DNA from: a virus
Taxonomy: Duplodnaviria; Heunggongvirae; Uroviricota; Caudoviricetes
Reading direction: 5' to 3' (one strand)
Length of the DNA: 64,000 nt
Virus record (IMG/VR): IMGVR_UViG_3300033074_000580
Span: 31,270 to 95,269 of that record
The notes under the pieces were generated by a model that ran no database searches, was not told the DNA's origin, and worked only from the letters and a program-made list of their open reading frames with translations. How positions within the stretch are numbered: position 1 is the stretch's first letter; each line of letters begins with the position of its first letter. Shown piece after piece: positions 712-50,113 of this stretch. Position numbers and translations under genes: made by a program.

Positions 712-729
712 TTTGTATATAATTTTTTA

Positions 730-1729: not shown

Positions 1730-1733
1730 AGTA

Positions 1734-1934
1734 TTAGTCTTGTAATAATTGTCTACCGTCGTTGGTAATATATTTTTTATTTATTCTTTCAACAATTCCG
1801 TCTTTTTCTCTGATTGTATAACATTCACCTGTCATTAAATCACATTCTTCTCTTTCCATTCCGTCATTAGAAACATTTCTAATTTGTTTTGGACTTAAGA
1901 ATTGGTCTACAGCCTTTAATGTATTATTTTCCAT
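1734..1934 (-). CDS. Small hypothetical protein (CDLMTGEC motif)
   Basis: 66 aa ORF preceded by a TATTTATA motif at 1952-1959. Confidence 0.55.
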   Translation of the reverse strand: MENNTLKAVDQFLSPKQIRNVSNDGMEREECDLMTGECYTIREKDGIVERINKKYITNDGRQLLQD

Positions 1935-1979
1935 AATTTTTAAGTTATATGTATAAATATCCCAAATATCTTAATATTC

Positions 1980-12854: not shown

Positions 12855-14744
12855 TTATCTTTTAGCTGTCGACGGTTGAGTATATTCTTTCTCATCAGTT
12901 ACAATAAAATCATTATAAATGCTTGAATTTTTAACAGTTTCTCTCATCCAACCATCAACTAATGTTGCACCTCCCTTAAATTCGTATTCATTTTTAACGG
13001 TAACTGTTTTATTAACACTCATTTCTTTTTGTTTCTTTTCGGTCTCCTCTTGTACCATTTTTTTAGCCTGTTCTTGAGTTACTGAATTTTTAGGTGATTC
13101 TACTTTACCTTTTTGTTTATCATCTTTTAATGTAGAACCAAGTCCCTTTATTTCATTTGTTAACGCCGCAGCTAATTTAGGCATCGACTCTCTTGTGATA
13201 TCAGCAATTTTGCCCATATCTACCAACTTGTTAAATAACTCTTTTCCTTCTCTACCTGCAGCTAATGCCGCCGCCTTTACTAAATAAGATACGTCTCTTC
13301 TAATGTTCTCAATATTTGTCGCCTGACCTCTAACAATATCTTCAGGTGACATTTCTTTAAATTGATTTCTATATTCTAATAATAATTTTGCTTGTCTATC
13401 ATCAATTTGGTCTAATGCAACTGAATTTGCACCATCAAATTGTCTCCTTAATTCTTCAGAATTTAATGCTATGGTCATTTTGCCATCTTGCATTTGTGCT
13501 AAATTCGATAAAAATTCTTTATCATCACTTTCAATTTGTAAACCTGACAACATTTGAGTTGATGAAAGTCTTTCTTGTGTTGCAATTGCAGTCTTAGTTA
13601 ATTCTTTGTAATCAACACCAAGAGCGGTTGCCATTTCTCTTACTTTTCTAAGATTAACACCAGTAACCTCAAATCTACCTTGTTCTTGATTATATGTCGC
13701 CAAAGAACCAGCAGCTTCAATTAAAGCGTCTTGTAGTCCTTCAACATTATTTGTTGCCATATACATCAATTTAAGTGGGTCATTAAAATCACCAATTGCA
13801 CCACCTAACACTTGTAAATTTGCTGATAATTCTAATGCACCCTCAGGACTAAACACCTTTTCCGCAACTGCAGCTACAGATTCCATACTTGATTTGAATT
13901 CAATTGATTTTTGAACCATTCTTGCAAGTCCATCAATACCTTTTTGGAAACCGTATTGGTTTAACATTCCTATATTTGTTTGTAAGGATTCTGCAACTTT
14001 TTTTGAACTCAAACCTAACTCTAATGAACGTTGTCCCGTTCTTTGAACCGCATCAATAGTACTTTTTGCACCGATACCCACTTTTTCAAATTCAGGTATC
14101 ATTTCCATCATTTTGGACATGTCACCAATATAAGCTTGACCTATTTTACCAACATCATATAATGTTTCTCTGTTTAAAACATTAAATCTTCCAGTTGTTT
14201 GTAATAAATTGGTTGATGCAATTGCTACCGTGTCAAAAGAAATACCTAATTTGGTTAAATCTCTACCCGCCTCACTAATTTGATTTCTAAAATCCGCAGA
14301 TAATTTACCTGTTAAACTAGTTTTGGTGTTAATATCTTCTAATAACTTAGTTTGATTTTGATATTCGTTTGAAACTTCTGTTAATCCTGCACTAAATAAT
14401 TTTTTAGCTAATTCATCGGGTGTGGCTAATCCTCCTTTAGAACCACTTAATGCACCAACAATAGAATCCGCATTTACTGTTTTTGATATGTCTGTATAGT
14501 ATTGTCCTGATTGTTGTGACCCCGCAAATTTTGAAACTAAGTTACCTAACGCTAATCCACTATCATTCGGAGTTCTACCTCCTCCATCCATCTGATATCC
14601 GTCATAGAGTGATTTAGCCTCTCTAGTTCTTGTGTCCATGGTTTTATTCTTGTCTCTATCAGCATATACATCATTATATGTTGTCAAGAATTTCATCCAA
14701 TTCTGCTGTTTTGCAAGTGTTTCTAAGTCTTTTACATTCGCCAT
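12855..14744 (-). CDS. Tail tape measure protein
   Basis: 629 aa helical, Ala/Leu/Gly-rich protein between the tail chaperone and baseplate genes. Confidence 0.65.
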   Translation of the reverse strand: MANVKDLETLAKQQNWMKFLTTYNDVYADRDKNKTMDTRTREAKSLYDGYQMDGGGRTPNDSGLALGNLVSKFAGSQQSGQYYTDISKTVNADSIVGALSGSKGGLATPDELAKKLFSAGLTEVSNEYQNQTKLLEDINTKTSLTGKLSADFRNQISEAGRDLTKLGISFDTVAIASTNLLQTTGRFNVLNRETLYDVGKIGQAYIGDMSKMMEMIPEFEKVGIGAKSTIDAVQRTGQRSLELGLSSKKVAESLQTNIGMLNQYGFQKGIDGLARMVQKSIEFKSSMESVAAVAEKVFSPEGALELSANLQVLGGAIGDFNDPLKLMYMATNNVEGLQDALIEAAGSLATYNQEQGRFEVTGVNLRKVREMATALGVDYKELTKTAIATQERLSSTQMLSGLQIESDDKEFLSNLAQMQDGKMTIALNSEELRRQFDGANSVALDQIDDRQAKLLLEYRNQFKEMSPEDIVRGQATNIENIRRDVSYLVKAAALAAGREGKELFNKLVDMGKIADITRESMPKLAAALTNEIKGLGSTLKDDKQKGKVESPKNSVTQEQAKKMVQEETEKKQKEMSVNKTVTVKNEYEFKGGATLVDGWMRETVKNSSIYNDFIVTDEKEYTQPSTAKR

Positions 14745-14757
14745 ACATATAAATAGA

Positions 14758-14919
14758 TTAGTCCGTATTTTCTATTTCCATTATGTAGTTTATATAATAT
14801 CTTCTTATATAAACAGGCATGGTTAAAATGTCTCCATAAGAGAATCCTTTTCTAACCAAATAATGTATTTCAGATAATTGATTTTTCTTATACTCCGTAG
14901 AAAGGGCGAAAAAAGTCAA
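14758..14919 (-). CDS. Tail/baseplate assembly chaperone C-terminal ORF (T4 gp51-like), probably reached by frameshift
   Basis: Unannotated frame: ...ALSTEYKKNQLSEIHYLVRKGFSYGDILTMPVYIRRYYINYIMEIENTD*; overlaps the end of the upstream gene in the +1 frame; only a TTG start is available at its 5' end. Confidence 0.6.
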   Translation of the reverse strand: MTFFALSTEYKKNQLSEIHYLVRKGFSYGDILTMPVYIRRYYINYIMEIENTD

Positions 14920-15637
14920 CCCCGAATCCAATAGTAAATTGGACTACTTCTCCTGACGGGGCGATTGCTTGTTGTGTTAAGTCTATTCCAGGTTTTACAT
15001 CTGAAATATATTTTCTAAAATCTTGTGAATCTTTAATTGGAAGATTTTCAATAAAATTACGAGTGTTCATCGGGTCTTTGTTTCCTTCGACCGATTTAAT
15101 CATACCCTCAAGTTGTTTGGTAATAACGGGAGCGAACCCAACACCATTCCAACTTTTATTCATTTCACGAATTTCATTTTCTTGTTTTTGTGTTAAAAAT
15201 TTAAATGTGATATGAATTTTAGATTTTTCCATATAATATGGATATTCACCGTTTGCGTCACTTTCTAAATCAAATGGTTTGAAATTAAGACTACTTAAAT
15301 CGATGTCAACTTCAAATTCCTCATTTGTTTTTGGGTCTGTTAATTTAACCTTATAATCTGAACCAAATGCAGTGTTTCTTAAAAATATAAGAATTGCTTG
15401 TCTATCCTCTTCAACAATATCGTCAATTGCAATATCCTTATCAATTACTTTTCTTTTTAAAAGTTCGGTAACGATTGCGTTTGTTTGAATTAAATTTGGT
15501 GACGCTAAAATATTTTCATCGGCAGCAGTTAAGTATGCAACTCTTAATGATTTCTTATTGTTAGCGTAATGAATACCTCTACTTGGTAATTCCACCACAT
15601 CATATGCAATTCGGGGGTCAATTCTATATTCTTCCAT
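14888..15637 (-). CDS. Tail/baseplate hub assembly chaperone (T4 gp26-like)
   Basis: VELPSRG..Y, LTAADENIL and DRQAILIFLRNTAFG motifs; located between tube and tape measure genes. Confidence 0.65.
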   Translation of the reverse strand: MEEYRIDPRIAYDVVELPSRGIHYANNKKSLRVAYLTAADENILASPNLIQTNAIVTELLKRKVIDKDIAIDDIVEEDRQAILIFLRNTAFGSDYKVKLTDPKTNEEFEVDIDLSSLNFKPFDLESDANGEYPYYMEKSKIHITFKFLTQKQENEIREMNKSWNGVGFAPVITKQLEGMIKSVEGNKDPMNTRNFIENLPIKDSQDFRKYISDVKPGIDLTQQAIAPSGEVVQFTIGFGVDFFRPFYGV

Positions 15638-15685
15638 AGTGTAAGTTTAAACTATAACTATTAAAAAGTAAAGTTTTGAGCAAAC

Positions 15686-15734
15686 AAAAAAACCGATAAC
15701 CTATTAGACAGATTTACTAATTTGGTTACCGGTT
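15686..15734 (-). terminator. Long hairpin intrinsic terminator after the tail tube gene
   Basis: Minus strand: AACCGGTAACC..ATTAG-loop-CTAAT.GGTTATCGGTT followed by a T run. Confidence 0.65.
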
Positions 15735-15754
15735 CTTTAAATAAAATGATTATA

Positions 15755-16243
15755 TTAGAATACTTGGATACAACGGTCCATTCTCAAATTACAAGTAATT
15801 GTTGAGATTTCGTCTCTTGAGTAATCAAGTTCACCGAAGTCTAAGTTTGTGATAAATGTTCCTTGAAGAATCCATTTTTCAACCACAACTCCAGTTGGGT
15901 CTAACATTTCAAGTTCAATGTCTTTTTTATAACCAGCAGCATATCCCATTCTACCTGTTACTGATTCTGCATGTAAACGGAACCATTCCATAAGAGCTTG
16001 AGAAGCCGAAGGACCGATTGGGTCTCTAAAGGTTACTCTAAGTTCTTCCCATGTGAAACGTCCAGCAACATAAGTTGAAGTATTCAAGAATTGAATTTCT
16101 GTTGAGTTAATTTTTGCTTTTGGTCTAGCTGCGGAACTTACAAACCATTCATTGATACCCAATGATGATGGGAAGCGAAGAATAAATCGATTCTGTCTTT
16201 TTGGTTCGTAAGGAACCGGCATTTTCATTAGTAAATCTGCCAT
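15755..16243 (-). CDS. Tail tube protein (T4 gp19-like)
   Basis: EPKRQNRF...YVAGRFTWEE...YKKDIELEMLDPTGVVVEKWILQG; follows the sheath gene. Confidence 0.9.
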   Translation of the reverse strand: MADLLMKMPVPYEPKRQNRFILRFPSSLGINEWFVSSAARPKAKINSTEIQFLNTSTYVAGRFTWEELRVTFRDPIGPSASQALMEWFRLHAESVTGRMGYAAGYKKDIELEMLDPTGVVVEKWILQGTFITNLDFGELDYSRDEISTITCNLRMDRCIQVF

Positions 16244-16367
16244 TTTGTGTTAGTTAAATTTTTTGTTATTTTTACTTCTTATAAATATATCTTAAATAGA
16301 AAATAAATTATTTATCGGACCAAACTTGATTTTATCAAAAATTTTTCGTAGTTTTTTACAAAATCCT

Positions 16368-16456
16368 CCAGTATCTAGTTCCAGTATAAATAATATATCT
16401 AGTTTATTATTTATTATTATATAAATACTAGTTCTAGTATATTCTAGTATACTGGG
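16368..16456. repeat. Cluster of C(C/T)AGT(A/T) short repeats with nested inverted repeats
   Basis: CTAG at 16375, 16399, 16428, 16434 and 16444; CCAGTAT at 16368 and 16381; ATACTAG-TT-CTAGTAT palindrome; CCAGTATA/TATACTGG inverted pair. Confidence 0.7.
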
Positions 16457-16486
16457 CAAATAAAATCATTTAATTATTATATCCAA

Positions 16487-16502
16487 TGTTCCACGTGGAA
16501 CG
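16487..16502. promoter_or_regulatory. parS-like palindrome
   Basis: TGTTCCACGTGGAACG, with a perfect 14-bp core; resembles the bacterial parS family (TGTTNCACGTGAAACA and its TGTTCCACGTGGAACA variant); intergenic. Confidence 0.6.
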
Positions 16503-16511
16503 TTCTACAAT

Positions 16512-16543
16512 AAAAAAAGGGAAGCTTTTCGGCCTCCCTTTCT
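16512..16543 (-). terminator. Intrinsic terminator after the tail sheath gene
   Basis: Minus strand: AAAGGGAGGC-CGAAAA-GCTTCCCTTT followed by a T run. Confidence 0.75.
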
Positions 16544-16566
16544 TATTTTTATATTCTCCTTTTAGA

Positions 16567-19023
16567 TTAGATATTCTCAAATGAAGCTCCTGTTGGAGTA
16601 ATTACGAATTCCAAATCAATAAATTCAAGAGAACGAGTTGGTTTTACATAGATTTTACCTCTTAATGTATTTGCGTCTATATCTTCAGGGTCACTTGATA
16701 CAGTTACCTTAAATTCATATAAACCTCTTTCTTTCTTGATTGATTCTAAGATAGGATTTACCAATCTCAAGAATTCTTGTCTTACTTGTTCGTCGTTTTG
16801 TTCAAACAATAATCTAACAGCAACAGCTGAAATTAACTTTCTTGCTCTCAATAACAATCTTCTTACGTTGATTCTATCTAATGCAGATTCTCTAACTTGA
16901 AGAGTTTTGTTACCCCAAATGATAGTACCTGTATCAGAGAATGTTGCAATTGGGTTAATTCTATTCTTGTAAAGAGTGTCTCTTTCGTCTAATGTTAATT
17001 TCTTTTTAGCTTTGATTGCATTTACCAAACCTCTTGAATAACCGGCAACCGCGAACCAAGGATATGAAACATTATCAGTTAAAGCAATATTCTTCAATAC
17101 TTCACCTGTTGGTGGAATGTAAAGTTGAGTTGCGTTATCTGTGTCTCTTACTTGAATCCAAGGCCAATATGTTGCTGAATAGTTAGAATCAATTGCTAAG
17201 TCATCAAGATATCCTGTTACAGTATCTGAATCATCAACATTTGGTGCTGAGATAATATATAATGAATCCGCTCTATCATTTTCAACCATATCAATTGCTT
17301 GATTTGTTAAAGATGAGTGGTCATAGAAGTTAATACCCGGAGTTGCAAATACGTTAATATCAACAGCTTCAGGGTTTGCAAATGTTTGAATACCAGTGTT
17401 ATATGCATAGTAATCAGAGTTACCAGCAGATGTACTAAACACCCCACCATTATCTGTGTTACCTGTTATATAAGTTGTTTTACCAAATATAAATTGGTCA
17501 CCGTATGTTCTTGTTTGTCTGTAAACATCCCAACCATCAAATCCACCACCTACTGCAAATGTAAACTTACGATAGTTTATATTTGTCAATTTGTTAGCGT
17601 TACCACCTGATTGACCTTCTAAATCATATGGTGTACATTGATATGTTGTACTTGTGATTGAAGATGCGTTAGTTGATAAGTGGAAACCGTTAGTTTCACC
17701 ATTAGCTGCCGTTCCTTTATATTTAAACAATGCAGCATCGTGTTGATATCCTTCTTGGCTAGATAAACCTAAAGATACTTTCTTTACTTTATCACCACTT
17801 GAAGTTGTTCCTGAGAATGTTGCACCTGAATAAATTACGTCACCCGCATCAAAATATTTTACTTTATAGTTAACTGCACCTAATGTAGTTGAACCCGATA
17901 ATGTTGCTGATGTGAATCCTTTAAATCCTGCAGGGAACGCATCTGTTGGGTGATTATCTGTCATACTTAACATGATATACTTAGAACGTAACTCATATTC
18001 ACCGTCTGAAGTACCCACTTTTCTTGCAACATATCCTGGCATGTCAGGATTCATTGAACATCTTGTAAATTTCTCAAGTACTACTTGATTTTCATCTGTA
18101 TCGTTAAAATCACGAACAATTAAATCAAATTCACCTGTTTCTAAATTTATATTTTGAATAGTAATTTTAACTTGTTCATTTGAAGAATCACCATCAGAAA
18201 TTGTAATAACGTCAAATAAATCTGCAACTTGACCACCTCTTACTTCAGATACTACTGTTGGTGAAGCTGCGGTTTTCCATTGAGTTAAATAATTGTCACT
18301 TTCTAAATTTATTACCGGTGTTAGACTTAATCCCGTTAAATTACCTTGTTTATAAGCCGATTCAACATAATTAGGATAAACTTCATGTACATATAACGGA
18401 AAATCGTCCATATTCTTATCAAAAACACTTGTGCCTAATACTTTTGAAATGTATTTTGGTGATGTTTTATCTAAAGAACATGTAAATGATTTAACTCCTG
18501 TATTTCCCGTTACCGATAATGTAAATTCAGCCAATGGGTTTGTTGTTAGACCTGAACCTGTAATTGCAATTGTTGTTGTACCTGTTTGAGTCATTCCAGA
18601 TGTCGCATATGTTAGATTTTGACCAACATATTGACCTCTAGACCTTAGAGATACAACTACTTTATTGTTATAGTTAGAATCACCACTTATTGTTTTAATA
18701 CCAAATGTTTTATAAGGTAGGTAACCTGTTAAACCAAGAATTCTTGTAACGAATAATTGATTTGATTCTTGTAAATAAGATTTAGCCACATAAGGTAATT
18801 CATATTTAGGATTTCCTGCACCGTCTTTTTCTGGTGAAGTTGAACCAAAATATGTTTTGAATTCGTCGAAACCACCAATTAAAATTGGTTCAAATGCCGG
18901 ACCTTTTAAAGTCTCACCCACTAAACCCAATGTTGTAACTCCGACACTTTGTGCCACGAATGTAAGATCCTTCTCTGATGTGTACACACCTGGAGATACG
19001 AATACTCTGTTTGAATTTGCCAT
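16567..19023 (-). CDS. Tail sheath protein (T4 gp18-like)
   Basis: VSPGVYTSEKD N-terminus; YSATYWPW, PWFAVAGYSRG, WGNKTLQ and RINVRRL motifs. Confidence 0.95.
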   Translation of the reverse strand: MANSNRVFVSPGVYTSEKDLTFVAQSVGVTTLGLVGETLKGPAFEPILIGGFDEFKTYFGSTSPEKDGAGNPKYELPYVAKSYLQESNQLFVTRILGLTGYLPYKTFGIKTISGDSNYNNKVVVSLRSRGQYVGQNLTYATSGMTQTGTTTIAITGSGLTTNPLAEFTLSVTGNTGVKSFTCSLDKTSPKYISKVLGTSVFDKNMDDFPLYVHEVYPNYVESAYKQGNLTGLSLTPVINLESDNYLTQWKTAASPTVVSEVRGGQVADLFDVITISDGDSSNEQVKITIQNINLETGEFDLIVRDFNDTDENQVVLEKFTRCSMNPDMPGYVARKVGTSDGEYELRSKYIMLSMTDNHPTDAFPAGFKGFTSATLSGSTTLGAVNYKVKYFDAGDVIYSGATFSGTTSSGDKVKKVSLGLSSQEGYQHDAALFKYKGTAANGETNGFHLSTNASSITSTTYQCTPYDLEGQSGGNANKLTNINYRKFTFAVGGGFDGWDVYRQTRTYGDQFIFGKTTYITGNTDNGGVFSTSAGNSDYYAYNTGIQTFANPEAVDINVFATPGINFYDHSSLTNQAIDMVENDRADSLYIISAPNVDDSDTVTGYLDDLAIDSNYSATYWPWIQVRDTDNATQLYIPPTGEVLKNIALTDNVSYPWFAVAGYSRGLVNAIKAKKKLTLDERDTLYKNRINPIATFSDTGTIIWGNKTLQVRESALDRINVRRLLLRARKLISAVAVRLLFEQNDEQVRQEFLRLVNPILESIKKERGLYEFKVTVSSDPEDIDANTLRGKIYVKPTRSLEFIDLEFVITPTGASFENI

Positions 19024-19150
19024 CGATTGTTGTTTGGTTAATTATTTTTATTAGTTATTCTATAAATATCTTTGTTTTTAGCAAAGATTTCCGTACTTTT
19101 TTGAAAAAAGATAGTTAATTATCCTTTTTTATCTTTATTTATCTTTTACT

Positions 19151-19309
19151 ATGGATAACAAAACTAAAAACGTAAAAATTAGTGAGAAACACCACGAAAT
19201 GTTAAAAAACCATTGTGATAGGAATGGTTTAAAAATTTATAAAGTTTTAGAGAAATTTATTGAAGACCTTTGTAAACCCAAAAAGAAAGACATTTACGGA
19301 GAAGATTAG
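19151..19309 (+). CDS. Small ribbon-helix-helix (Arc/CopG-like) DNA-binding protein
   Basis: Unannotated 52 aa ORF MDNKTKNVKISEKHHEMLKNHCDRNGLKIYKVLEKFIEDLCKPKKKDIYGED; beta-strand plus two helices pattern. Confidence 0.6.
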   Translation: MDNKTKNVKISEKHHEMLKNHCDRNGLKIYKVLEKFIEDLCKPKKKDIYGED

Positions 19310-20541
19310 TACAAATATGTAATACCAATTCTCGAACCGATAACAGGGGTTCCCAATATTGTTACTTCTTGATTACCTGTTATATCAAAACCCTGACCCT
19401 CCTCTTCAACAAGACCATTTATGTCTAATGTAACAACACTATTGATATTATTATAGGTTCTAAAAACTGGAGTTCCTCCTGAATATGTAAAATATTCTGT
19501 GGTAACTTGTATTAGTTTACCGTAATTGTCGATAATAACACTATTTCTACCTTTATAATATGAAATTACAATGGTACTACCTTCTAAAGGTGCCTCTGCA
19601 AATGTAACTTTAGATGTGTAAGCCACATGAAAATAATCCACGTCTCTTTCTTGTAAAAGACCATTTATTGTCACACTAAACAAGGTACCTATACTTTCAC
19701 CAACGCTAAATTGTGTCTGCATACCATCACCTGTAAATGACATTACAGTAATATCAATAGCTTTACTTACATATTTCTTTCTACCCGCACCTTCTTTTGC
19801 AAATTCATTCATTAAGAAAAATCTACTAATTGCCGGTTTTACTTCAAATTCTTCAGAATCAATTAAGAAACCTAACATTGTGAATGTATATTTCTGCATA
19901 TAAAATCTACGACCATCCATAGTATCTAAAGGTGTGTTATCTTCCACTCTATCCATGATGATTGGAATGTAATGACCTTTAACTTGAGTATAATCCTGTC
20001 TAGATGAGAAATTTTGAAGTACTACTTTACTGAATTTGTTTAAATCTCTAAACTTATTACAAGCAACATATACCTCATAAGTGATATCAACAGGTACAGG
20101 TTGAGGTATTTTGTATATATCAGCCCCCATTTGGGTACCGTTCCAAGTTGGTACGGATGCATAATAAAATTGATGTCTGTCAGGTATGGTTCTTTGTACC
20201 GATGGGTTTGTACCCGGTTGAACGTCTGGTTTTCTAACAATTGAAACAAATGGTAACATTGGGTTACCGTCTTCGTCTGAAAATTCCCAATTGTTTGAAA
20301 ATTCTCCCCATCTTTGTACAGTTAATATTTTCTTAATAACGGGTATTTTTTTACCGTCAGCGACAACATTAAAGTTTTTTTGGACATAATCTAAAAAACC
20401 ACCATCTAAATCGTCGTGTAAAATAGAATCAGGTAGATACGTGTCAGACTTTGTTATCTTATCTAATAACTCTTGTCTTCTTTCGGTAAGTTCTTTACCG
20501 GTATAAACCGAAATACTTGTTTTTCTTTTAGGTATTCCCAT
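19306..20541 (-). CDS. Tail completion/sheath stabilizer protein (T4 gp15-like) with C-terminal beta-repeat domains
   Basis: PQPVPVDITYEV motif; next to the neck and sheath genes; start chosen at MGIPKRK. Confidence 0.55.
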   Translation of the reverse strand: MGIPKRKTSISVYTGKELTERRQELLDKITKSDTYLPDSILHDDLDGGFLDYVQKNFNVVADGKKIPVIKKILTVQRWGEFSNNWEFSDEDGNPMLPFVSIVRKPDVQPGTNPSVQRTIPDRHQFYYASVPTWNGTQMGADIYKIPQPVPVDITYEVYVACNKFRDLNKFSKVVLQNFSSRQDYTQVKGHYIPIIMDRVEDNTPLDTMDGRRFYMQKYTFTMLGFLIDSEEFEVKPAISRFFLMNEFAKEGAGRKKYVSKAIDITVMSFTGDGMQTQFSVGESIGTLFSVTINGLLQERDVDYFHVAYTSKVTFAEAPLEGSTIVISYYKGRNSVIIDNYGKLIQVTTEYFTYSGGTPVFRTYNNINSVVTLDINGLVEEEGQGFDITGNQEVTILGTPVIGSRIGITYLY

Positions 20542-20542
20542 A

Positions 20543-21055
20543 TTAAACTCCTCTAAATTGGTTATCTTGAACAGGTGAACATAATATTGACCTGTAATAT
20601 GGTTTGTATCCAAACATATTATGTTTATTGTCCGACGTTACTCTACCGTCATTAGTTACTTGATAAAATCTTGTTCTTGTTTCAGATTCAGGGTAACCAA
20701 TGTAATCACCGTATCTAATATCTATTTTTAATTCTTCTAAATGTTTTATATAAACAGAAAGAGACATATTACCCGGCTCCAAATACCTCATCAATCCACC
20801 ATTATATGATGAATTTTTAGGTTCTTCAATTTTAACCAACGCATTAAATTCAACAGGAGGGAAAAATTTAGTTTGGTCAACTCCAACTTCAGCATATACC
20901 GAATCGGTATCAGTTTTTTCTCTATCTACACGATAAAGAACCAATTTCATGTTTAAATCCCCATGTAGATATTCTTGTCCTATTTGAATATTTAAATCAA
21001 AATCGTCCTGAGATAAGAATTTACCTAATCTGGTAATCGGTAGTTTATTGTTCAT
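20543..21055 (-). CDS. Head completion/neck protein (T4 gp14-like)
   Basis: VLYRVD...DSVYAEV...F.PPVEF motif and gene context. Confidence 0.55.
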   Translation of the reverse strand: MNNKLPITRLGKFLSQDDFDLNIQIGQEYLHGDLNMKLVLYRVDREKTDTDSVYAEVGVDQTKFFPPVEFNALVKIEEPKNSSYNGGLMRYLEPGNMSLSVYIKHLEELKIDIRYGDYIGYPESETRTRFYQVTNDGRVTSDNKHNMFGYKPYYRSILCSPVQDNQFRGV

Positions 21056-29261: not shown

Positions 29262-30428
29262 TTAATAAATTAGTATGTCGTTATCTTCTGTAAATAGATA
29301 TTCACCATTTTCAGTTGTTATACCTACTGACGTAAATGCCGTTATTTCTTGACTACAAGGTGACTGACATTCGTTTATATTATAATTTGGATAAATTGTA
29401 GTTTTATAATGATGTTTAACGTGTACAAAATCTAGAGGTTCTTCAAAATACTTAACCTGTAATAATGAGAATTCAGTATTACCCGTGTGTAAAGTATTAT
29501 AACCAGTAGTTCCCCCACCCCAAGATTGTATTATTTGATTTTCAGACTCTCTTAAAGACGGTATTACTTCTTCCCAATTTTTTAATTTATATATTGGTTT
29601 ACCGTTTAGATAAATTGTTAATGTCCCTAATCTATTTAATCTATTATTCCACCATTTTTTGTTTAACTCTTCGATAAACTCGTTTGTAATTGTTCCCCCA
29701 CTCATCCAATCATAAATGTCGTTGCTTATGGTATAACCTGTCATTATTTGGGTTGATGTGGAACCGGTATCGTTTGGCGTATAGGAAACTGGATGTGGAC
29801 CTAAAATTAAATCATTCCACCCACCTTCGTTTTCTATTTCACAATTATTATATTCATTATTTCTTGTAAATGTAATTGTAACATTAAAATCGGACGACGT
29901 ACCACCGCTACATAATACTGGTGTTTGTCCTGATAATGTATAATATGATTCGGTATATCCCGATATGGTATCACAAACCCCCGAATAGTGGTATTTTTCC
30001 CATTTTATTCTACCGTCATTTGTAAATGAAAATGATAGATTATTGTCCGCGTAGTATCTTTCATTGGTTTCCCCACTAATACCCCAATAATAGAATGTTG
30101 TTCCTCCAGACCAATTTATGCTTTCTTTATTAAAAACAAAATCTAATGTCCACCCCTTTTCTGTACGTCTTCTAACCGTAAAATCACACGTATCTCCCGT
30201 ATAGTTATTGTTAATTTCATAAACCCACGGTTTAACATCATCTAATATATTTGTTAAACATGAAGAGTCCACAGTTAGTCCCGAATATAATATCTCAGTA
30301 TTAAAATCCAACACCTCGGAATTGTAATCGTCGGTTATTTTGGACAGTTCAAAATCATATAATTCAGAATAATCCAATTTTAAATCCAATTTACTACCGT
30401 AAAACTTTAAAATATTTTGGTTTGCCAT
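29262..30428 (-). CDS. Virion structural protein rich in [S/T]GxT motifs
   Basis: Start MANQ lies 5 nt after a late motif; lectin-like beta pattern; ends TENGEYLFTEDNDILIY. Confidence 0.55.
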   Translation of the reverse strand: MANQNILKFYGSKLDLKLDYSELYDFELSKITDDYNSEVLDFNTEILYSGLTVDSSCLTNILDDVKPWVYEINNNYTGDTCDFTVRRRTEKGWTLDFVFNKESINWSGGTTFYYWGISGETNERYYADNNLSFSFTNDGRIKWEKYHYSGVCDTISGYTESYYTLSGQTPVLCSGGTSSDFNVTITFTRNNEYNNCEIENEGGWNDLILGPHPVSYTPNDTGSTSTQIMTGYTISNDIYDWMSGGTITNEFIEELNKKWWNNRLNRLGTLTIYLNGKPIYKLKNWEEVIPSLRESENQIIQSWGGGTTGYNTLHTGNTEFSLLQVKYFEEPLDFVHVKHHYKTTIYPNYNINECQSPCSQEITAFTSVGITTENGEYLFTEDNDILIY

Positions 30429-30433
30429 CGTTA

Positions 30434-30466
30434 TATAAATATCTTTCATAACATTTGATATTTATA
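30434..30466. promoter_or_regulatory. Back-to-back divergent late-promoter motifs (TATTTATA on each coding strand)
   Basis: TATAAATA at 30434-30441 (serves the minus-strand gene) and TATTTATA at 30459-30466 (serves the plus-strand gene). Confidence 0.65.
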
Positions 30467-33485: not shown

Positions 33486-34709
33486 ATGTCAAAAATTAAG
33501 ATTTTAGCAATACCGTCAGATAAATTTGGAGTGGGTAAATTTAGAGTATTAGACCCATACAAATATATTGGTGATAACCATTCTGACGATGTGCACGTAG
33601 ACATCACATTTGATGCAGAAAATAATGATGAATATTTTTTAAATTACAATATTGTAGTTTTTCATACGTTTATTCACCAAACAAATCACGAAGATAATGT
33701 TAACCGAATAAAATGGTTAAAAGAAAAAGGAATCAAAGTCATAATGGACATTGATGATATGTGGTTTGTTGACCAAAGACACCCAATGTATCTCCAAATT
33801 AAAAATTCTAAATTGGGTGAGATGAAAATTGAAATGATGAAATTAGTTGATTGTGTCACAACAACAACACCAATTTTCGCAAAAACAATAAAAGATAGAT
33901 TGAATGTTAAAAATGTTGAGATTTTTCCTAACGCGGTTAATGACGAGGAATTACAATTTCAACCAAACCCAAGTAAGTCAGATAAAATTAGATTTGGTTG
34001 GTTAGGTGGGTCATCTCACTTATATGATATTGAGTTAATGTCTGGAGGTATTTCGTCAACACATAATTCGTTTAAAGATAAAGTACAATTTGTTTTATGT
34101 GGTTTTGATTTAAGAGGTACGGTAACTGAGATTGACCAATATGGTAATAAAAGAAATCGTCCAATACAACCTTCGGAAACTGTTTGGTACAAATACGAAA
34201 AAATGTTTACCGATGATTACAAAGTTTTAGATGAACAATATAAAAACTTTTTGTTAACTTTCACAGAAATACCTTATGATGATGTGGACAAACCATATAG
34301 AAGAAGATGGACACAAAATGTTTCAACATATGCATCGAATTACAATACATTTGACGTATCTTTGGCACCGTTAGTTGAAAGTTTATTCAACGCTAATAAA
34401 TCACAATTAAAAGTGATTGAGGCGGGATTCCATAAAAAGGCACTAATTGCAAGTGAAACGGACCCATATACTTTAGACTTAATAAACGCAGTTGACAACG
34501 GGAACTTCAATAATAAAGGTAACGCCTTATTAGTAAATCCTAAGAGAAATCATAAGGATTGGGCAAAACAAATGAAGAGATTAGTTGAAAATCCAAATAT
34601 GATTGAAGACTTAGGTAATCGATTATATGAAACAGTAAAGGATACATACTCACTAAAAAAAGTGTGTAACGATAGAGTACAATTTTTTAAATCAATTATA
34701 AACAAGTAA
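33486..34709 (+). CDS. Glycosyltransferase, GT-B fold (GT4-like)
   Basis: MDIDD, FGWLGGSSH and DVSLAPL..FNANKSQLKVIEAG motifs. Confidence 0.85.
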   Translation: MSKIKILAIPSDKFGVGKFRVLDPYKYIGDNHSDDVHVDITFDAENNDEYFLNYNIVVFHTFIHQTNHEDNVNRIKWLKEKGIKVIMDIDDMWFVDQRHPMYLQIKNSKLGEMKIEMMKLVDCVTTTTPIFAKTIKDRLNVKNVEIFPNAVNDEELQFQPNPSKSDKIRFGWLGGSSHLYDIELMSGGISSTHNSFKDKVQFVLCGFDLRGTVTEIDQYGNKRNRPIQPSETVWYKYEKMFTDDYKVLDEQYKNFLLTFTEIPYDDVDKPYRRRWTQNVSTYASNYNTFDVSLAPLVESLFNANKSQLKVIEAGFHKKALIASETDPYTLDLINAVDNGNFNNKGNALLVNPKRNHKDWAKQMKRLVENPNMIEDLGNRLYETVKDTYSLKKVCNDRVQFFKSIINK

Positions 34710-37254: not shown

Positions 37255-37490
37255 AAGAAGAGGAATTAAATGACGAAGAAACCGAATCAACTGAAGCGAC
37301 TGAAATTAACATTTTTAAATATGAAATTATAAAAATGTGTTTAGAAAGAGTTTTAGGTGAAATAGATGAGGTTGACGATGAATTGGGTGCATTTGGTAAA
37401 AACACTTCAACTACATCATTTAAAATAGCATTTAATACTTTAATAAAACATAAAATCTTAATCGAAGAAATAAACGAAGACGATGAGTAA
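37176..37490 (+). CDS. Hypothetical acidic protein
   Basis: 104 aa ORF ending FKIAFNTLIKHKIL...; overlaps both neighbours. Confidence 0.55.
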   Translation: MVELFGKIYYIDIDGITDKCRTGYTIKEEELNDEETESTEATEINIFKYEIIKMCLERVLGEIDEVDDELGAFGKNTSTTSFKIAFNTLIKHKILIEEINEDDE

Positions 37491-38547
37491 CAAAGAAAAC
37501 ATAGAAAAATTAGAATCTGCAATTGGTAGATTAAAAACGAGTGAAAGTAGTGTGTATTTTTTAACATACGACACTAAAGGTAATGCTAGAGCATCTGTAA
37601 AATACATTTACGATTTGGCTCTTACTTTACATAAAAATGGAATACCTTCCAAAATTTTAGTTGAGGATAACACATATAAGGGTGTTGATTCTTGGTTAGG
37701 TGAGGAATATAATGTCTTACCAGTTGTTTCGATTAAAGAAGATAAAATTGAATTAAAAATTGATGATACATTAGTTGTCCCTGAATATTTCTCAAACGCA
37801 TTACAACAATTATCAAATATCAAATGTATTAAAGTAATGTTAGTACAACAAAAAGATTATATTTTTGAGACATTACCAATTGGAAGTCGTTGGAGTGATT
37901 ATGGATTTGATAGAGTTATCACAACTAACGAATCTACTAAAAAATACATTATGGAATATTTTCCAGAATCGTTAGTATTTGTAATTCCTCCAATCATTGG
38001 GGATAATTTTAAACCAATCAATTTACCACTAAAACCAATTGTTGCAATTAGTTGTAGAGATAGAGCGGTACATAGAAAAATCATTTCGGAATTTTATTTA
38101 AAATATCCACAATTGAGATGGGTTACATTTAAGGACATGGTTCAAATGTCATATAATGAATTTGCAGATGCGTTAAAAGAATGTATGGTTTCTGTGTGGG
38201 TTGATGATGAATCTACATTTGGTACATTCCCATTAGAATCCATGAAAAGTGGTGTACCAATTATTGGTAAAATTCCTGATGTTGAACCAGATTGGTTGTC
38301 TGAGAATGGTATGTGGACCTATGATGGTAATAAAATCGTAGATTTATTGGGTACATACATTTTAGCTTGGATTGAGGGGGTTGAACTTACAGACGAGGTG
38401 AAAGATAAAATGAAAGAAACTCTTTTACCATATGAAAAAACAATAACTGAAAATAACATTAGTTCTATTTTTAATTCATTAACCAATAAAAGAATTGAAA
38501 CATTGGAAAACGCGTTAAACAAATTAAAACAAGAAGAAACAGTATAA
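37483..38547 (+). CDS. Glycosyltransferase, GT-B fold
   Basis: VVPEYF and DDESTFGTFPLESMKSGVPIIG (GT4-like E-x7-E region). Confidence 0.75.
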   Translation: MSNKENIEKLESAIGRLKTSESSVYFLTYDTKGNARASVKYIYDLALTLHKNGIPSKILVEDNTYKGVDSWLGEEYNVLPVVSIKEDKIELKIDDTLVVPEYFSNALQQLSNIKCIKVMLVQQKDYIFETLPIGSRWSDYGFDRVITTNESTKKYIMEYFPESLVFVIPPIIGDNFKPINLPLKPIVAISCRDRAVHRKIISEFYLKYPQLRWVTFKDMVQMSYNEFADALKECMVSVWVDDESTFGTFPLESMKSGVPIIGKIPDVEPDWLSENGMWTYDGNKIVDLLGTYILAWIEGVELTDEVKDKMKETLLPYEKTITENNISSIFNSLTNKRIETLENALNKLKQEETV

Positions 38548-38548
38548 T

Positions 38549-39331
38549 ATGAAAAATATCACAGTAATCCTACCCGTTCATAAGTTAGATGACGATTATA
38601 GGGAAATGTTAAATAAAGCAATAGAATCTACTGAAGATTTTCATAATGATGTAAAGATATCCATTGTTTGTCCTGAAAATGTAAAAAAACAATTAGGGGA
38701 CTTATCTTCTGATAAGTTAGAAATTAACATTGTAGTTAATAAAAATGAAACCGACTTCTGTTCTCAAGTCAATTTAGGTATTGAAAAATGTGACACGGAA
38801 TGGTTTACAATTTTAGAAATCGATGATGAATTCAAACCTATTTGGTTAAAATCAATAAACGAGTATGTTAAAATATATCCTGATGTTGATGTGTTTTTAC
38901 CAATAGTGAAAGATATAAACACCGATGGTAAATTTGTTAGTTTTACTAACGAATCTGCATGGGCATATGGATTTACAGAAATTCAAGGATTCATCGATAA
39001 TGAGGTTTTATTAGAATTCCAAAACTATCAAATTAGTGGAGGTTTATATAGAACAAACAAAATTAAAGATAATGGTTCCTTAAAGAGTAATATTAAATTA
39101 ACCTTTGGTTATGAGTTTTTATTGAGATTAACACACAACGGAGTAAAGGTATTAACTGTACCAAGAGTTGGTTATCAACACGTTAATTTAAGAGAAGATT
39201 CATTATTTTGGATTTATAAAAACAATGAAGATAGTAAACTTTCAGAGAAAGAAGTTAAATTTTGGCTCGACACCGCGAAAAAAGAATTTTTCTTTAAAAA
39301 TAAACGAGATGTAAATTATACAGAAGCGTAA
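38549..39331 (+). CDS. Glycosyltransferase, family 2-like (GT-A)
   Basis: ITVILPVH, VNLGIEKCDTEWFTILEIDD and EFLLRL motifs. Confidence 0.8.
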   Translation: MKNITVILPVHKLDDDYREMLNKAIESTEDFHNDVKISIVCPENVKKQLGDLSSDKLEINIVVNKNETDFCSQVNLGIEKCDTEWFTILEIDDEFKPIWLKSINEYVKIYPDVDVFLPIVKDINTDGKFVSFTNESAWAYGFTEIQGFIDNEVLLEFQNYQISGGLYRTNKIKDNGSLKSNIKLTFGYEFLLRLTHNGVKVLTVPRVGYQHVNLREDSLFWIYKNNEDSKLSEKEVKFWLDTAKKEFFFKNKRDVNYTEA

Positions 39332-40047: not shown

Positions 40048-40428
40048 ATGAGAGAGAAAAGAAATTTGATTTCCTTGGAAGTCGACTCTGCATTATCCTT
40101 AATGCAAGAGATTTACAACGATATTGTAGAACAAAAAAATACCGCGTCTATGATAACTAAAAAGATGTTATCTTTCATGAAAGACGCAGAGGACATGAGT
40201 GTTATTGGTCCCGTTATTAAAGAACAACAAAAAATACTTAACGATTGTACTGAGAAGAAAATCTCCTTAGTTAAACTACAGGGTGTGTTATTAAAACAAA
40301 CACAATCCGCTGCGGGTGGTAAAGGTGCACCTATGGGTAAATTAACGTTGTCTGACGAAGATAGAGAAATATTGGATAAGTTGATGAATGATACTTCAGA
40401 TAATAAATCTAACAATTATAAACTATAA
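40048..40428 (+). CDS. Helical hypothetical protein (possible small terminase subunit)
   Basis: 126 aa coiled-coil ORF with a late motif 3 nt upstream; the function is a guess. Confidence 0.4.
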   Translation: MREKRNLISLEVDSALSLMQEIYNDIVEQKNTASMITKKMLSFMKDAEDMSVIGPVIKEQQKILNDCTEKKISLVKLQGVLLKQTQSAAGGKGAPMGKLTLSDEDREILDKLMNDTSDNKSNNYKL

Positions 40429-42359
40429 TGTCCAATAAGATTAAAGAAACCAGAAAGAAGATTAAAAGCAAAGTCGAGGCCATTAAAAGGAGTAAAGACA
40501 ATGCAAAAAAAGACGTCCAAAAGTTTATCGATGGGTATGAAAGTAAAGCACTACACGGTGCAGAAGACCTATCAAAAACACTTTCTGATTTTGTTTCTAA
40601 AAAATCAAAAAAACTTGAAAATGGAGCTAATCGTGCCGGTGACGTTTTTTCAGATTTAATCGATACTATTGAGGGTTTCTTAAATGGTAAAGGATTAAAA
40701 GTTGAACCGACGGATAGATTATTTACAAAACAAAGATTAAGACAAATAACCAACGAATCGGCAAATGCTACATTAAAATCTGCTCAACAAATAATACTTG
40801 AGGCGGCACAAAAAATATTATTTGCGGGTGACGGTATCTGTGGTACAAATACCACGTTTGGTGCAACTACAAGTATCACTTTAAGTCCAAAAGAATTTGA
40901 TTTCATGAACATATTAACAATTTCACCAACAACTTGTTCGGGAAAAATTGTATATGAACCAGTATCACCAAATAAAGGATACGTAAAAATGAATCGAAGT
41001 TTATACAATACTTTTAGTGGAAATACACAAACATTCAATTCCGTTAACGGTAATAAATTGTTTGATTTATTATGGAGTGGAGATACCCAACAATATGTGG
41101 TTAGTGGATTAGGTACGAGTTCAAATAGTATAAAAACATTTTTAACGGATTATTATTCGTCAATTGAACCTGTCGATTTTAGTGGTGTGACAAAAACCGC
41201 AATTTATTTAACATTACACGGGTGTGGGGATGAACCACCTCTTTTTGATAAAGGTTGGAACGATTTAAACCGTTTATTACAAAAATTATGTGCATTATGC
41301 GGTAATCCAAGTAATGGTAAAATACCAAACGCCACAAGTGAATTTAACGAAAATGACGAAGATATCCAATCATATTTTAATTTTGATGATGTTGAAGGTA
41401 TTGATTTAGATGATGAAAAAGACAGATTAGATAAGGTATTAAAATTTAGAGATTGTAATAACTTTAAAGTTCCTGTTAATTCATCTCATTTTGAAGATTT
41501 TGTCGATGACGATGGTAATTTAAACGATGCGGTAAATGATGCTTTATTAAATTCTGCAATGGATGCACATAACCAATCTGATGGTAATATACCACCAGAT
41601 AATTTTCATTTAACATTGTTAAATACTTTTATCTTAAATCTACCTAAAGCACTAATAGGTTCGGTATTATCCCCAAAATTCTTTTTACCGATTATTATAA
41701 TTTACAAAGTTGTTGTAGCGGGAGTTGGTGCGGCAATTAAAAGTGCGAAAGAAATTATGAAAGTGTTATGGAAACTATTCTATTACGTTATTACAAAATT
41801 ACTTTGGAAATTTATATCCGAATTTTGGAAAAGAGTTAAAAGAGATTTGTTGTTATTTTTAGTTGATATTGCGGCAACGATATTAGGTAACAAGACCAAG
41901 AGATATCGTAAAATGTTACTTGCACTTATTGCTATTTTAACAAAAATTTTAGAAAATGGTTTAGATAACTGTAAAGACCTATATGAAATGATAAACCTAT
42001 CTATTGATTTGGCATTATCAGGTTTGGGTGGTGGTCTTAACGGTGGGTTTTCATCTAGTGGGATTAGTGCATTTATGTTACCTTTCTTTTTAAAGAAACC
42101 GGGTTATAGTGAGGATAGAGCAACAATAAATGCGATACAAAAAATGGAAGAAAAAGGATTATCAACAGCACCAATATTTGGTGAACCGAATAATCTTATA
42201 AAATTTGTTCAATCAGTAATTGAAGGTCATACTGAAGAAATGGATAATAGTTCATATGTTGCGGTTGGTAATAAAGAAGTTGTAATACCTGTACCTGGAT
42301 TATCAGGACCATTGGTTATACCACCGGGAGTTATTTTAAGTGGAGGAGGTACTTTTTAA
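40428..42359 (+). CDS. Hypothetical virion-associated protein with hydrophobic helices
   Basis: 643 aa; precedes the gp5-like gene; contains SGNT, SGDT and SGVT motifs. Confidence 0.5.
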   Translation: MSNKIKETRKKIKSKVEAIKRSKDNAKKDVQKFIDGYESKALHGAEDLSKTLSDFVSKKSKKLENGANRAGDVFSDLIDTIEGFLNGKGLKVEPTDRLFTKQRLRQITNESANATLKSAQQIILEAAQKILFAGDGICGTNTTFGATTSITLSPKEFDFMNILTISPTTCSGKIVYEPVSPNKGYVKMNRSLYNTFSGNTQTFNSVNGNKLFDLLWSGDTQQYVVSGLGTSSNSIKTFLTDYYSSIEPVDFSGVTKTAIYLTLHGCGDEPPLFDKGWNDLNRLLQKLCALCGNPSNGKIPNATSEFNENDEDIQSYFNFDDVEGIDLDDEKDRLDKVLKFRDCNNFKVPVNSSHFEDFVDDDGNLNDAVNDALLNSAMDAHNQSDGNIPPDNFHLTLLNTFILNLPKALIGSVLSPKFFLPIIIIYKVVVAGVGAAIKSAKEIMKVLWKLFYYVITKLLWKFISEFWKRVKRDLLLFLVDIAATILGNKTKRYRKMLLALIAILTKILENGLDNCKDLYEMINLSIDLALSGLGGGLNGGFSSSGISAFMLPFFLKKPGYSEDRATINAIQKMEEKGLSTAPIFGEPNNLIKFVQSVIEGHTEEMDNSSYVAVGNKEVVIPVPGLSGPLVIPPGVILSGGGTF

Positions 42360-48388: not shown

Positions 48389-50113
48389 TTATCTTAAAGT
48401 ATCCAAGCTGAATGTAGTGATACCTCTCACGTCGATTACACCGAAGTAACGGTTGTTAACCATTTTCTTCGCGTATCTTGTCATGATACCTTTGATAGGT
48501 GTCATTGTGAATGGATTATACATTGTTGGAGTTAATTGTAAAGGTACATATGGTGCGTAGATGTAACCAGCATCCAATAATGATTTACCTTTGTGACCAA
48601 TTAACATTTTGTTAGCTGGGAAGTAAGGGTCACGATATACTTGATATCTACCTGCTAATGAACCGATTTTCTCGATACCCATGTTGTATGAGTCTTGCTC
48701 AGGAGCTGCATTAGATACGTGGAAATATTCTAAATCATCGAATACTGCAGAAATTTCTGAAGAAACAACAATCCAGTTAGCACCACCTCTTAATGTAGTC
48801 TTATGGATTTGAGCTGAAATTTGGTTAACTTTAGTTACCAAAGTTTGGTTCCAGTCTTTTTGAGTGTAACCTTGTAATGTAGCACCTGATGCTCCACCGT
48901 ATTTCCACTCATTGTAATCCCATTTAGCTTTCCAAGCTGCACCTTTACGTAAGTCACGTAAGATTTCACGGTCAACTTCTGCTGCAATTTGCTCAGATAA
49001 TAAAGCTGTTAATTCAGCTTCAGCATCGATGTTGTGGAATGCACTAACGTCTTGAGCTAATTCAGGAGACCAAGTTGCTCTTAATTTTCTTTCAGTTACA
49101 GAAACTGTTACTGATTGTAAATCGAAAGAAACTTCACCGATTGCATCTTCGAATTCTAATGTATCGTATGTTCTGTAAGTTAATGTCCAGTCACCGATAG
49201 CAGTTGCACCTAACACAGCGTTAGAGAAACCTGAAGTTGCTGAATAAGTTTGGTGGTCTACTTGTAAGTAGATTGTACCTTCTTCATCACAAATATCATT
49301 GTACTTACCTGATGGGTAGTTACCTGAAGTTGCAGTAGAACCGTATTCAACAATACCTTTACCATATTTTTGAGTTACCACGTTGAATGGTAATGCAGTA
49401 CCTTGGTAAGATACAACAGCACTTGCTAAGAATTCTTCTGTATCCATAGCGTTACCGTTAGGTCCGATTAACTTACCTTGACCATCTTTTACGAAACCTG
49501 TGAACTTAGCGATTACACTAGAAACACCTGTACCACCTGTGATAGATGATAAAGTTACGTTTGTAGTTGAACCGTTAGAGAAAGTTACTAAAGTTGATGC
49601 AGATAATGTGATTGCTGAATAAGAACCTTTTGAATAATCAAAAAGACCTGAAGTTACAGCATCACCATCACCATTCTCATAGAAACGGTCATATAAGTTA
49701 CCACCAGTATATCCTTCACCTGGGTTAGTAGAGTTTGAAGGGTATCCGTAAGGAGAGTAGTGGTTAGCTCCTGTTCTTTCCTGAATTTTAGGAATGAAGT
49801 AGAATAATTTACCAATTGGTAAGTTCATAGCTTGTACAGACACGATGTCGTTAGCTAATAATTTAGAGAATACACGACGAATGATAGGGAATACCACAGT
49901 CTCGAATGAACCAGACGCATCTGCTACTGCAGCTTCGTTGATTAAGTAAGACGCTTGGTTTTCATATAATTGCGCGATGTTATCTTTTTGGTGACCTTCT
50001 AAACCTTCTAAAAAGCCTAAGTCATCCCATTTTTTGATGGTATCTTCTTTGATAACACGTAAGTGCTTAAGACCGATGTTACCTACCATACCTGATTCTA
50101 ATAATGCTCCCAT
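48389..50113 (-). CDS. Major capsid protein (T4 gp23-like)
   Basis: LLANDIVSVQAM, RKLRATWSPELAQD, EIL.DL and GYIYAPYVPL..MTRY motifs. Confidence 0.95.
   Translation of the reverse strand: MGALLESGMVGNIGLKHLRVIKEDTIKKWDDLGFLEGLEGHQKDNIAQLYENQASYLINEAAVADASGSFETVVFPIIRRVFSKLLANDIVSVQAMNLPIGKLFYFIPKIQERTGANHYSPYGYPSNSTNPGEGYTGGNLYDRFYENGDGDAVTSGLFDYSKGSYSAITLSASTLVTFSNGSTTNVTLSSITGGTGVSSVIAKFTGFVKDGQGKLIGPNGNAMDTEEFLASAVVSYQGTALPFNVVTQKYGKGIVEYGSTATSGNYPSGKYNDICDEEGTIYLQVDHQTYSATSGFSNAVLGATAIGDWTLTYRTYDTLEFEDAIGEVSFDLQSVTVSVTERKLRATWSPELAQDVSAFHNIDAEAELTALLSEQIAAEVDREILRDLRKGAAWKAKWDYNEWKYGGASGATLQGYTQKDWNQTLVTKVNQISAQIHKTTLRGGANWIVVSSEISAVFDDLEYFHVSNAAPEQDSYNMGIEKIGSLAGRYQVYRDPYFPANKMLIGHKGKSLLDAGYIYAPYVPLQLTPTMYNPFTMTPIKGIMTRYAKKMVNNRYFGVIDVRGITTFSLDTLR

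Follow-up and report, generated by a model that had tools for sequence, protein, structure and literature searches.

A short amino acid tag, consisting of a hydrophobic residue followed by Ser or Thr, Gly, any residue and Thr, is strongly over-represented in seven proteins of a large phage, and its distribution among phage genomes matches that of a glycosyltransferase gene. The phage is represented by one contig of 323,865 bp with 31.5% G+C (G000; IMG/VR record IMGVR_UViG_3300033074_000580), and the stretch of 64,000 nucleotides analysed here, called the window, comprises its bases 31270-95269. Judged by its genes, G000 is a T4-like jumbo myovirus. The protein of main interest, P0001, and the glycosyltransferase at 33486-34709 are both encoded in the window (Table 1). 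We put at roughly 0.45 the probability that hydrophobic-[S/T]-G-x-T is a cytoplasmic O-glycosylation sequon written by enzymes of the 33486-34709 family.

In P0001, the core of the tag, [ST]GxT, occurs 11 times (SGLT, TGDT, SGGT three times, SGET, SGYT, SGQT, TGST, TGYT and TGNT) against 0.64 in composition-preserving shuffles (5000 for each window protein; Poisson probability about 1e-10). Counted over the 387 open reading frames (ORFs) of G000, the excess is confined to P0001, the tail sheath and five proteins encoded upstream of the window, which together hold 69 motifs where 7.4 +/- 2.7 are expected; the remaining ORFs hold 105, with 112 expected. Six of the seven pass the threshold at which we call a protein enriched (Poisson P<1e-4), and the seventh has a P of 1.5e-3. 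The eight motifs of the sheath (1.29 expected, P 6e-5) all precede the Pfam sheath domains at residues 533-809, as the first-pass annotation of the window had it when it placed them outside the conserved C-terminal core. Its by-eye counts were reproduced throughout, with 11 motifs in P0001, eight in the sheath, five in a hub-sized protein, four in a 1571-aa protein, three in each of the proteins at 40428 and 44144, two in the capsid protein and two in the polymerase, and none in the helicase, terminase, portal and scaffold-sized ORFs. The enrichment that it expected over shuffles holds for P0001 and the sheath, is marginal for the hub-sized protein, the 1571-aa protein (P 0.046) and the proteins at 40428 and 44144 (the latter with P 0.017), and is not seen in the capsid protein (2 versus 0.69). 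Taken together, the ORFs of the window other than P0001 and the sheath have a mild excess (29 versus 10.9), and a tube-sized ORF at 15755-16243 has no [ST]GxT. "Virion-wide", the term first used for the supposed glycan coat, is too broad, since the capsid is not enriched and the excess resides in seven proteins.

The motif is sharply defined. Among residues preceding GxT in the seven proteins, Ser (4.9x) and Thr (3.1x) are raised and nothing else is; following [ST]Gx, Thr alone is raised (5.1x; Ser 0.9x), and between [ST] and xT, Gly alone (5.8x). The residue at -1 is hydrophobic in 63% of motifs versus 34% of the background. No excess is seen in the same proteins for the related patterns [ST]GxS, [ST]AxT and [ST]xGT or for TxG[ST], the reverse of the motif; N-x-S/T is not enriched (59 versus 61.9), and D[ST][AILVMT], the Bacteroidota sequon, is if anything depleted (13 versus 20.2 +/- 4.1). 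Both Ser codon sets (AGY and TCN) and two Gly codons (GGT and GGA) are used within the motifs, so selection acts on the protein, and a motif at the DNA level is ruled out by this diversity.

Alignments of the protein families show how the motif is maintained. Motif Thr is retained in 73-75% of sequences versus 47-48% for other Thr of the same proteins, and position 0 remains Ser or Thr in 72-77% versus 58-61% for other Ser/Thr, with Ser-Thr swaps at this position in 5 of 11 and 5 of 12 sites; motif Gly is retained no better than other Gly. Only 16-24% of motif instances fall in columns conserved in at least 80% of sequences. Members of the P0001 family of at least 300 aa have a median of 8 motifs (0.67 expected), and in the family of the 591-aa upstream protein the number is 5-17 (median 12), with the sites occupying 48 columns of the alignment. 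One site in the P0001 family holds the motif in two registers (WSGGTTF and WVSGSTF), and sporadic sites occur at about the frequency predicted by chance. These data describe a conserved core of sites together with turnover, in which the number of sites is held.

The proteins that carry the excess are dissimilar. All-against-all BLASTP among the seven gave no similarity, and hidden homology was ruled out on this ground. P0001 has no match in Pfam (up to E 1) or PHROG (up to E 0.1), the Laminin_G and CBM models included, and none of the five upstream proteins matches either collection; a neighbouring gene alone matches a weak PHROG without known function. P0001 is a core gene of its lineage, with 629 homologues of 45-83% identity on contigs of up to 334 kb. 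Its ORF can start 21 nt further upstream than the internal Met8 taken in the first-pass annotation, at 30449, which gives 395 aa; this start, MKDIY, is kept by many homologues, and both starts occur among them. A structural model of P0001 built from 48 sequences (predicted local distance difference test [pLDDT] 80, predicted template modelling score [pTM] 0.74) is that of a ConA/LamG-type jelly-roll beta-sandwich. In Foldseek it matched CBM40 (probability 1.0, E 1.6e-7) and the lectin-like half of clostridial neurotoxin binding domains, with target-normalised TM scores of 0.52-0.55 across the matches, a predicted resemblance at the level of the fold only. The ESM Atlas offered nothing useful for the 591-aa upstream protein, and its model was of poor quality, with a pLDDT of 56; comparison was limited to residues 192-283, which resemble a small FNR/EF-Tu-domain-like beta-barrel (Z about 8, a middling value) and not a jelly roll. 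The earlier proposition that the motif recurs in unrelated proteins is thus upheld by the absent sequence similarity and, where folds can be read, by a jelly roll, an FNR-like beta-barrel and an insertion in the sheath. In terms of secondary structure, 9 of the 11 sites of the P0001 model have position 0 in coil or at the edge of a strand. The motif Ser/Thr is often the first residue after a strand, as at P0001 residues 84, 125 and 237 (the last in a strand-TG-strand arrangement) and at residues 176 and 226 of the 591-aa protein. Coil or a strand edge is the setting of position 0 in both models, and the following strand often begins with the motif Thr.

Nine genomes were compared for the motif (Table 2): G000; its relative G003, which is complete (terminal repeats, 100%); LR756501, a second and independent positive lineage; and six control phages, of which LR756508 was analysed over 400 of its 484 kb. 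The enriched proteins of G003 comprise orthologues of the seven G000 proteins together with two that have no homologue in G000. LR756501 shares 49 of its 993 genes with G000, and the capsid proteins are 23% identical. Its enriched proteins have no BLASTP match in G000 and none in Pfam or PHROG, and the specificity is the same as in G000 (Thr 5.3x and Ser 0.9x at +3; only Ser and Thr at position 0). In the negative genomes, the whole-proteome motif ratio is 1.2-1.7x. The three positive genomes have 8, 7 and 6 motifs in their sheaths, versus 0, 0, 0, 2 and 3 in the homologous sheaths of five negative ones. A generic feature of T4-like virions was ruled out, as T4 and the five other controls have no enriched protein. 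The motif depends on the genome and not on the protein family, which points to a reader acting in trans. Two very large proteins of LR756501, at 391944-395495 and 411185-419344, have 58 and 77 [ST]GxT against high expectations of 9.6 and 44, and are probably Thr/Ser/Gly-rich repeat proteins.

Table 1. Coordinates of the features discussed (W, window numbering; G, numbering of the whole G000 contig; observed versus expected [ST]GxT counts where given)
Feature	Coordinates	Strand	Remarks
P0001, 395 aa	W 29262-30449	minus	11 [ST]GxT; predicted ConA/LamG-like jelly-roll fold
Tail sheath, 818 aa	W 16567-19023	minus	Phage_sheath_1 at residues 533-708, Phage_sheath_1C at 713-809 (Pfam)
Sheath insertion region, residues 142-523	W 17455-18600	minus	holds all 8 sheath motifs
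Upstream protein	G 588-2153		14 versus 1.2
Upstream protein	G 2188-4593		8 versus 0.8
Upstream protein	G 5543-6118		191 aa; 8 versus 0.6
Upstream protein	G 14622-16397		12 versus 0.7
Upstream protein	G 16397-20932		8 versus 2.1
Hub-sized protein, 1939 aa	W 1980-7799	minus	5 versus 1.39, P 0.013; marginal, alone not convincing
643-aa protein	W 40428-42359	plus	3 versus 0.40, P 0.006; marginal; no family match
Gp23-type capsid protein	W 48389-50113
GT-B (GT1/GT4-like) glycosyltransferase, 407 aa	W 33486-34709	plus	candidate writer; weak Glyco_trans_1_4; phrog_7162, 1.6e-40
GT-B enzyme, 354 aa	W 37483-38547	plus	weakly similar to AmGGT (PDB 8XSG, E 4.3e-7)
GT2-family glycosyltransferase, 260 aa	W 38549-39331	plus	PF00535, 27.6 bits (cut-off 23.3)
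310-aa protein	W 58733-59665	minus	no family match; 66 residues 74% identical to an LR756501 protein
705-aa TibC/Aah-family protein	G 242651-244768	minus	outside the window, in a module at 239-248 kb
Collagen-like fibre, 1049 aa, proline-free	G 239445-242594	minus	(GSS/GTS)n runs at residues 141-371 and 564-776

Table 2. Motif-enriched proteins and two glycosyltransferase families in nine phage genomes (identities where given)
Genome	Size	Enriched proteins	33486-34709 family	TibC family
G000	324 kb	6 (seventh, P 1.5e-3)	yes	yes
G003	310.5 kb	8	yes, 62%	no
LR756501	735 kb	11	yes, 34% over 416 aa	yes, 41%
T4	169 kb	0	no	no
Flavobacterium phage immuto	160 kb	0	no	no
Microcystis phage Mel-JY01	190 kb	0	no	yes, 47%
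LR756508	484 kb (400 analysed)	0	no	no
LR756504	636 kb	0	no	yes, 34%
Klebsiella phage KP2025	150 kb	0	distant only, about 27%	no

Three glycosyltransferase genes form a fixed block about 3 kb from P0001, which is present in the lineage wherever the flanking sequence reaches that far. Within the lineage, we found no relative with the motif and without the trio, nor the reverse; as a core gene block, the trio cannot be dissociated from the motif there. Across lineages the co-occurrence expected in the first-pass annotation is seen in part: the 33486-34709 enzyme has homologues in all three positive genomes (in LR756501 with E 5e-58), and the other two enzymes are missing from LR756501. Five of the six negative genomes have no homologue of the 33486-34709 enzyme, and it is the sole glycosyltransferase whose distribution over the nine genomes matches that of the motif. 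The enzyme falls in viral glycosyltransferase clusters, and a profile scan for its distant relatives returned the same lineage only. G000, G003 and LR756501 have 26 genes in common, of which three have no match, or a distant one only, in the negative genomes, namely this glycosyltransferase, a D12-class DNA adenine methyltransferase and the 310-aa protein of unknown function at 58733-59665. The GT-B enzyme at 37483-38547 is conserved in the lineage and has no homologue in the phage record collection searched, and the GT2 enzyme at 38549-39331 has a homologue of 64% identity in G003. No membrane segments are predicted in any of the three. The link between the motif and the 33486-34709 enzyme is in our view suggestive, not strong.

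In the mechanism that we propose, hydrophobic-[Ser/Thr]-Gly-x-Thr would be a short tag selected in its own right, situated in loops at beta-strand boundaries of P0001 and a few tail-module proteins, and read by a phage factor acting in trans. This factor may be the soluble GT-B enzyme at 33486-34709, which would O-glycosylate the first Ser/Thr of the tag in the cytoplasm. The glycan could then be lengthened by the GT-B enzyme at 37483-38547 and the GT2 enzyme at 38549-39331, and the outcome would be tail and fibre parts coated with sugar, presumably exposed on the outside of the virion.

A number of points weigh against such a sequon and its proposed writer. Phage KP2025 has a distant homologue of the enzyme, detected by tblastn, but no excess of the motif. 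By itself, it is unremarkable that three of 26 genes are missing or distant in six controls, and the chance that a glycosyltransferase is among three such picks is roughly 1 in 8. The co-occurrence of enzyme and motif rests on two independent lineages, and in one of them, LR756501, the enzymes at 37483 and 38549 were not found. The trio lies among genes for dUTPase, PhoH and a sigma factor, not among structural genes. This setting, together with a thymidylate-synthase-family gene elsewhere in the genome (212242-213264, minus strand; PF00303, 320 bits; a synthase or a base hydroxymethylase), makes DNA or a host polysaccharide a possible target of the trio enzymes. The difference in fold between motif-rich proteins is drawn from one good model, one confident sub-domain and the absence of sequence similarity. 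Finally, a structural role is conceivable for several sites at turns that show strong conservation; P0001 sites 173 and 250 are kept in 43-44 of 48 sequences.

The last point belongs to an explanation that needs no modification, by which the motif would be a structural idiom preferred by these phage lineages in their beta-rich tail proteins, with a hydrophobic strand end, a Ser/Thr cap, a Gly turn and a Thr that opens the next strand. The position of motifs at strand-loop boundaries in the models agrees with it, as do a mild general excess of 1.3-1.7x in control proteomes and the occurrence of sporadic sites at about chance level. The 9-fold excess is limited to certain genomes, however, and is lacking in the homologous sheaths and the beta-rich fibres of six others, while LR756501, for all its few shared genes, has the same sharp specificity in proteins of dissimilar sequence. 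Nor does a turn motif account for the exclusion of Ser at +3 or for the turnover of sites with their number held. Because of the statistics, the specificity, the turnover and the dependence on the genome, we consider a purely structural idiom unlikely.

Less probable still is that the tag serves a reader which is not a glycosyltransferase, be it for phosphorylation, acylation, binding of an assembly chaperone, docking of a decoration protein or as a shared ligand-binding loop. The statistics and the phyletic pattern would be the same, as they speak for recognition in trans and not for a particular chemistry, and the 310-aa protein is distributed over the nine genomes just as the motif and the 33486-34709 glycosyltransferase are. 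This protein, however, matches its LR756501 counterpart over 66 residues only, the 26 shared genes include no kinase or acyltransferase of matching distribution, and a Ser/Thr hydroxyl beside Gly at the start of a loop is a documented context for glycosylation.

G000 also encodes, outside the window, a 705-aa protein of the TibC/Aah family. That the motif is the acceptor site of this enzyme is highly improbable and largely refuted by the phyletic pattern. In its favour, the protein is a true family member, Ser-Gly-Gly stands where loops begin in known substrates of the family, and 12 [ST]GxT (mostly SGGT) were counted in an AIDA-I-like passenger domain, with 4.6 expected. Against it, the complete genome of G003 encodes eight enriched proteins but neither the enzyme nor its neighbours; in Mel-JY01 and LR756504 the enzyme is present and enrichment is zero; and 0 of 80 viral enzyme loci have a motif-rich ORF, with a proline-free (G[ST][ST])n run at 27 of the 80.

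Membership of the family follows from the sequence of the 705-aa protein, which scores 292.4 bits with TIGR04414 (hepto_Aah_TibC; cut-off 200) and aligns with TibC (4RAP) over residues 39-386 of 406 with an E of 5e-54. The TibC-family part makes up the C-terminal 345 residues, and about 340 N-terminal residues are unexplained. In this family, an iron-finger is formed by C339, C342, C358 and C370, Asp110 is catalytic, and Thr226, Lys230, Arg286 and Trp305 bind the sugar (PMC4358343). The phage protein keeps the four cysteines, Asp110, Thr226, Lys230 and Trp305, and has Ser in place of Pro300, as in Aah; Arg286 is replaced by Ile, so the donor sugar may differ. By these marks we assign it to the protein O-heptosyltransferases of the TibC/Aah family. 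Homologues were found in 4 of 50,697 phage records and on at least 80 IMG/VR contigs. Its likely substrate is the adjoining 1049-aa collagen-like fibre, whose further neighbours are a GT4-FkbM methyltransferase fusion and another methyltransferase. Of 80 enzyme loci, 27 have a proline-free (G[ST][ST])n run no more than 4 kb away, versus 11 of 80 control loci, the latter with larger flanks. In the 251-kb relative G001, a TibC-like gene at 249108-249924, near the contig end, is spread over several frames with many stops; either the gene is decaying or the assembly is at fault there.

G000 is rich in glycosyltransferases, and a further set is found at about 218800-229900, where about a dozen plus-strand genes, several with GT1 or GT2 matches, follow one another in what has the look of an island for glycan synthesis. 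G003, which has kept the motif without this cluster and without the whole TibC-like and fibre module, has no homologue of any of these genes.

If the motif is a glycosylation sequon, glycosylated phage proteins could be predicted from sequence by a tag of four residues, and the tag could be carried over to other proteins for glyco-engineering in bacteria. The question of how tail fibres are hidden or adjusted by large aquatic phages in the face of host receptors, proteases or grazers would be touched as well. Even if the tag serves another purpose, a sharp motif that arises independently in unrelated proteins points to a new recognition system. Tentatively, the findings may be traces of a system not described before, in which a soluble GT1/GT4-like family would read a portable tetrapeptide sequon and coat the tail apparatus with sugar. 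The sequon would have been placed independently in loops of unrelated tail and fibre proteins, and the aquatic jumbo and huge phages concerned would belong to two or more lineages of deep divergence. To our knowledge, sugar coats of phage particles are documented for some actinophages only, and we know of no phage for which an acceptor sequon has been defined. Short sequons are familiar from Bacteroidota, where general O-glycosylation takes place in the periplasm at D-(S/T)-(A/I/L/V/M/T); this resembles the present case in that one short sequon is spread over many unrelated proteins, and differs in the sequon and in the periplasmic site.

Among phages, the closest parallel is offered by mycobacteriophages, whose glycosyltransferases are thought to decorate their own structural proteins, with glycans on the C-terminal tails of capsid and tail-tube subunits (Freeman et al., 2023, as cited in PMC12619734). 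Phage-encoded enzymes would act on phage structural proteins in both cases. Here, in contrast, neither the capsid protein nor the tube-sized ORF is enriched, a tetrapeptide defines the sites, which lie in internal loops of tail-module proteins, and the genome that carries the motif is that of a metagenomic T4-like jumbo phage, not of an actinophage. The aquatic "moraphages", which have Bacteroidota hosts, are reported to possess four core groups of glycosyltransferases (PMC12619734).

Two bacterial systems are reminiscent of the proposed mechanism. In Aah/AIDA-I and TibC/TibA of E. coli (bacterial autotransporter heptosyltransferases, BAHT), a soluble cytoplasmic enzyme of GT-B type attaches sugars to many Ser/Thr of a beta-rich surface protein, where the loop begins in a strand-loop-strand element (PMC3835316). 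The phage motif, however, does not travel with the phage's own BAHT homologue, and the candidate writer is GT1/GT4-like without detectable similarity to TibC. Moreover, BAHT acceptors are beta-helices, whereas the phage acceptors have varied folds, and Thr at +3 is not a feature of the AIDA-I repeat. In the second system, that of ApNGT and ApAgt in Actinobacillus, adhesins are glycosylated in the cytoplasm and ApAgt lengthens their glucose chains; AmGGT, a retaining glucoside-glucosyltransferase, is a homologue of ApAgt (PMC12159676). That system is N-linked on N-x-S/T, a pattern which is not enriched in the phage proteins. The weak similarity of the GT-B enzyme at 37483-38547 to AmGGT makes it a possible chain extender, by analogy with ApAgt.

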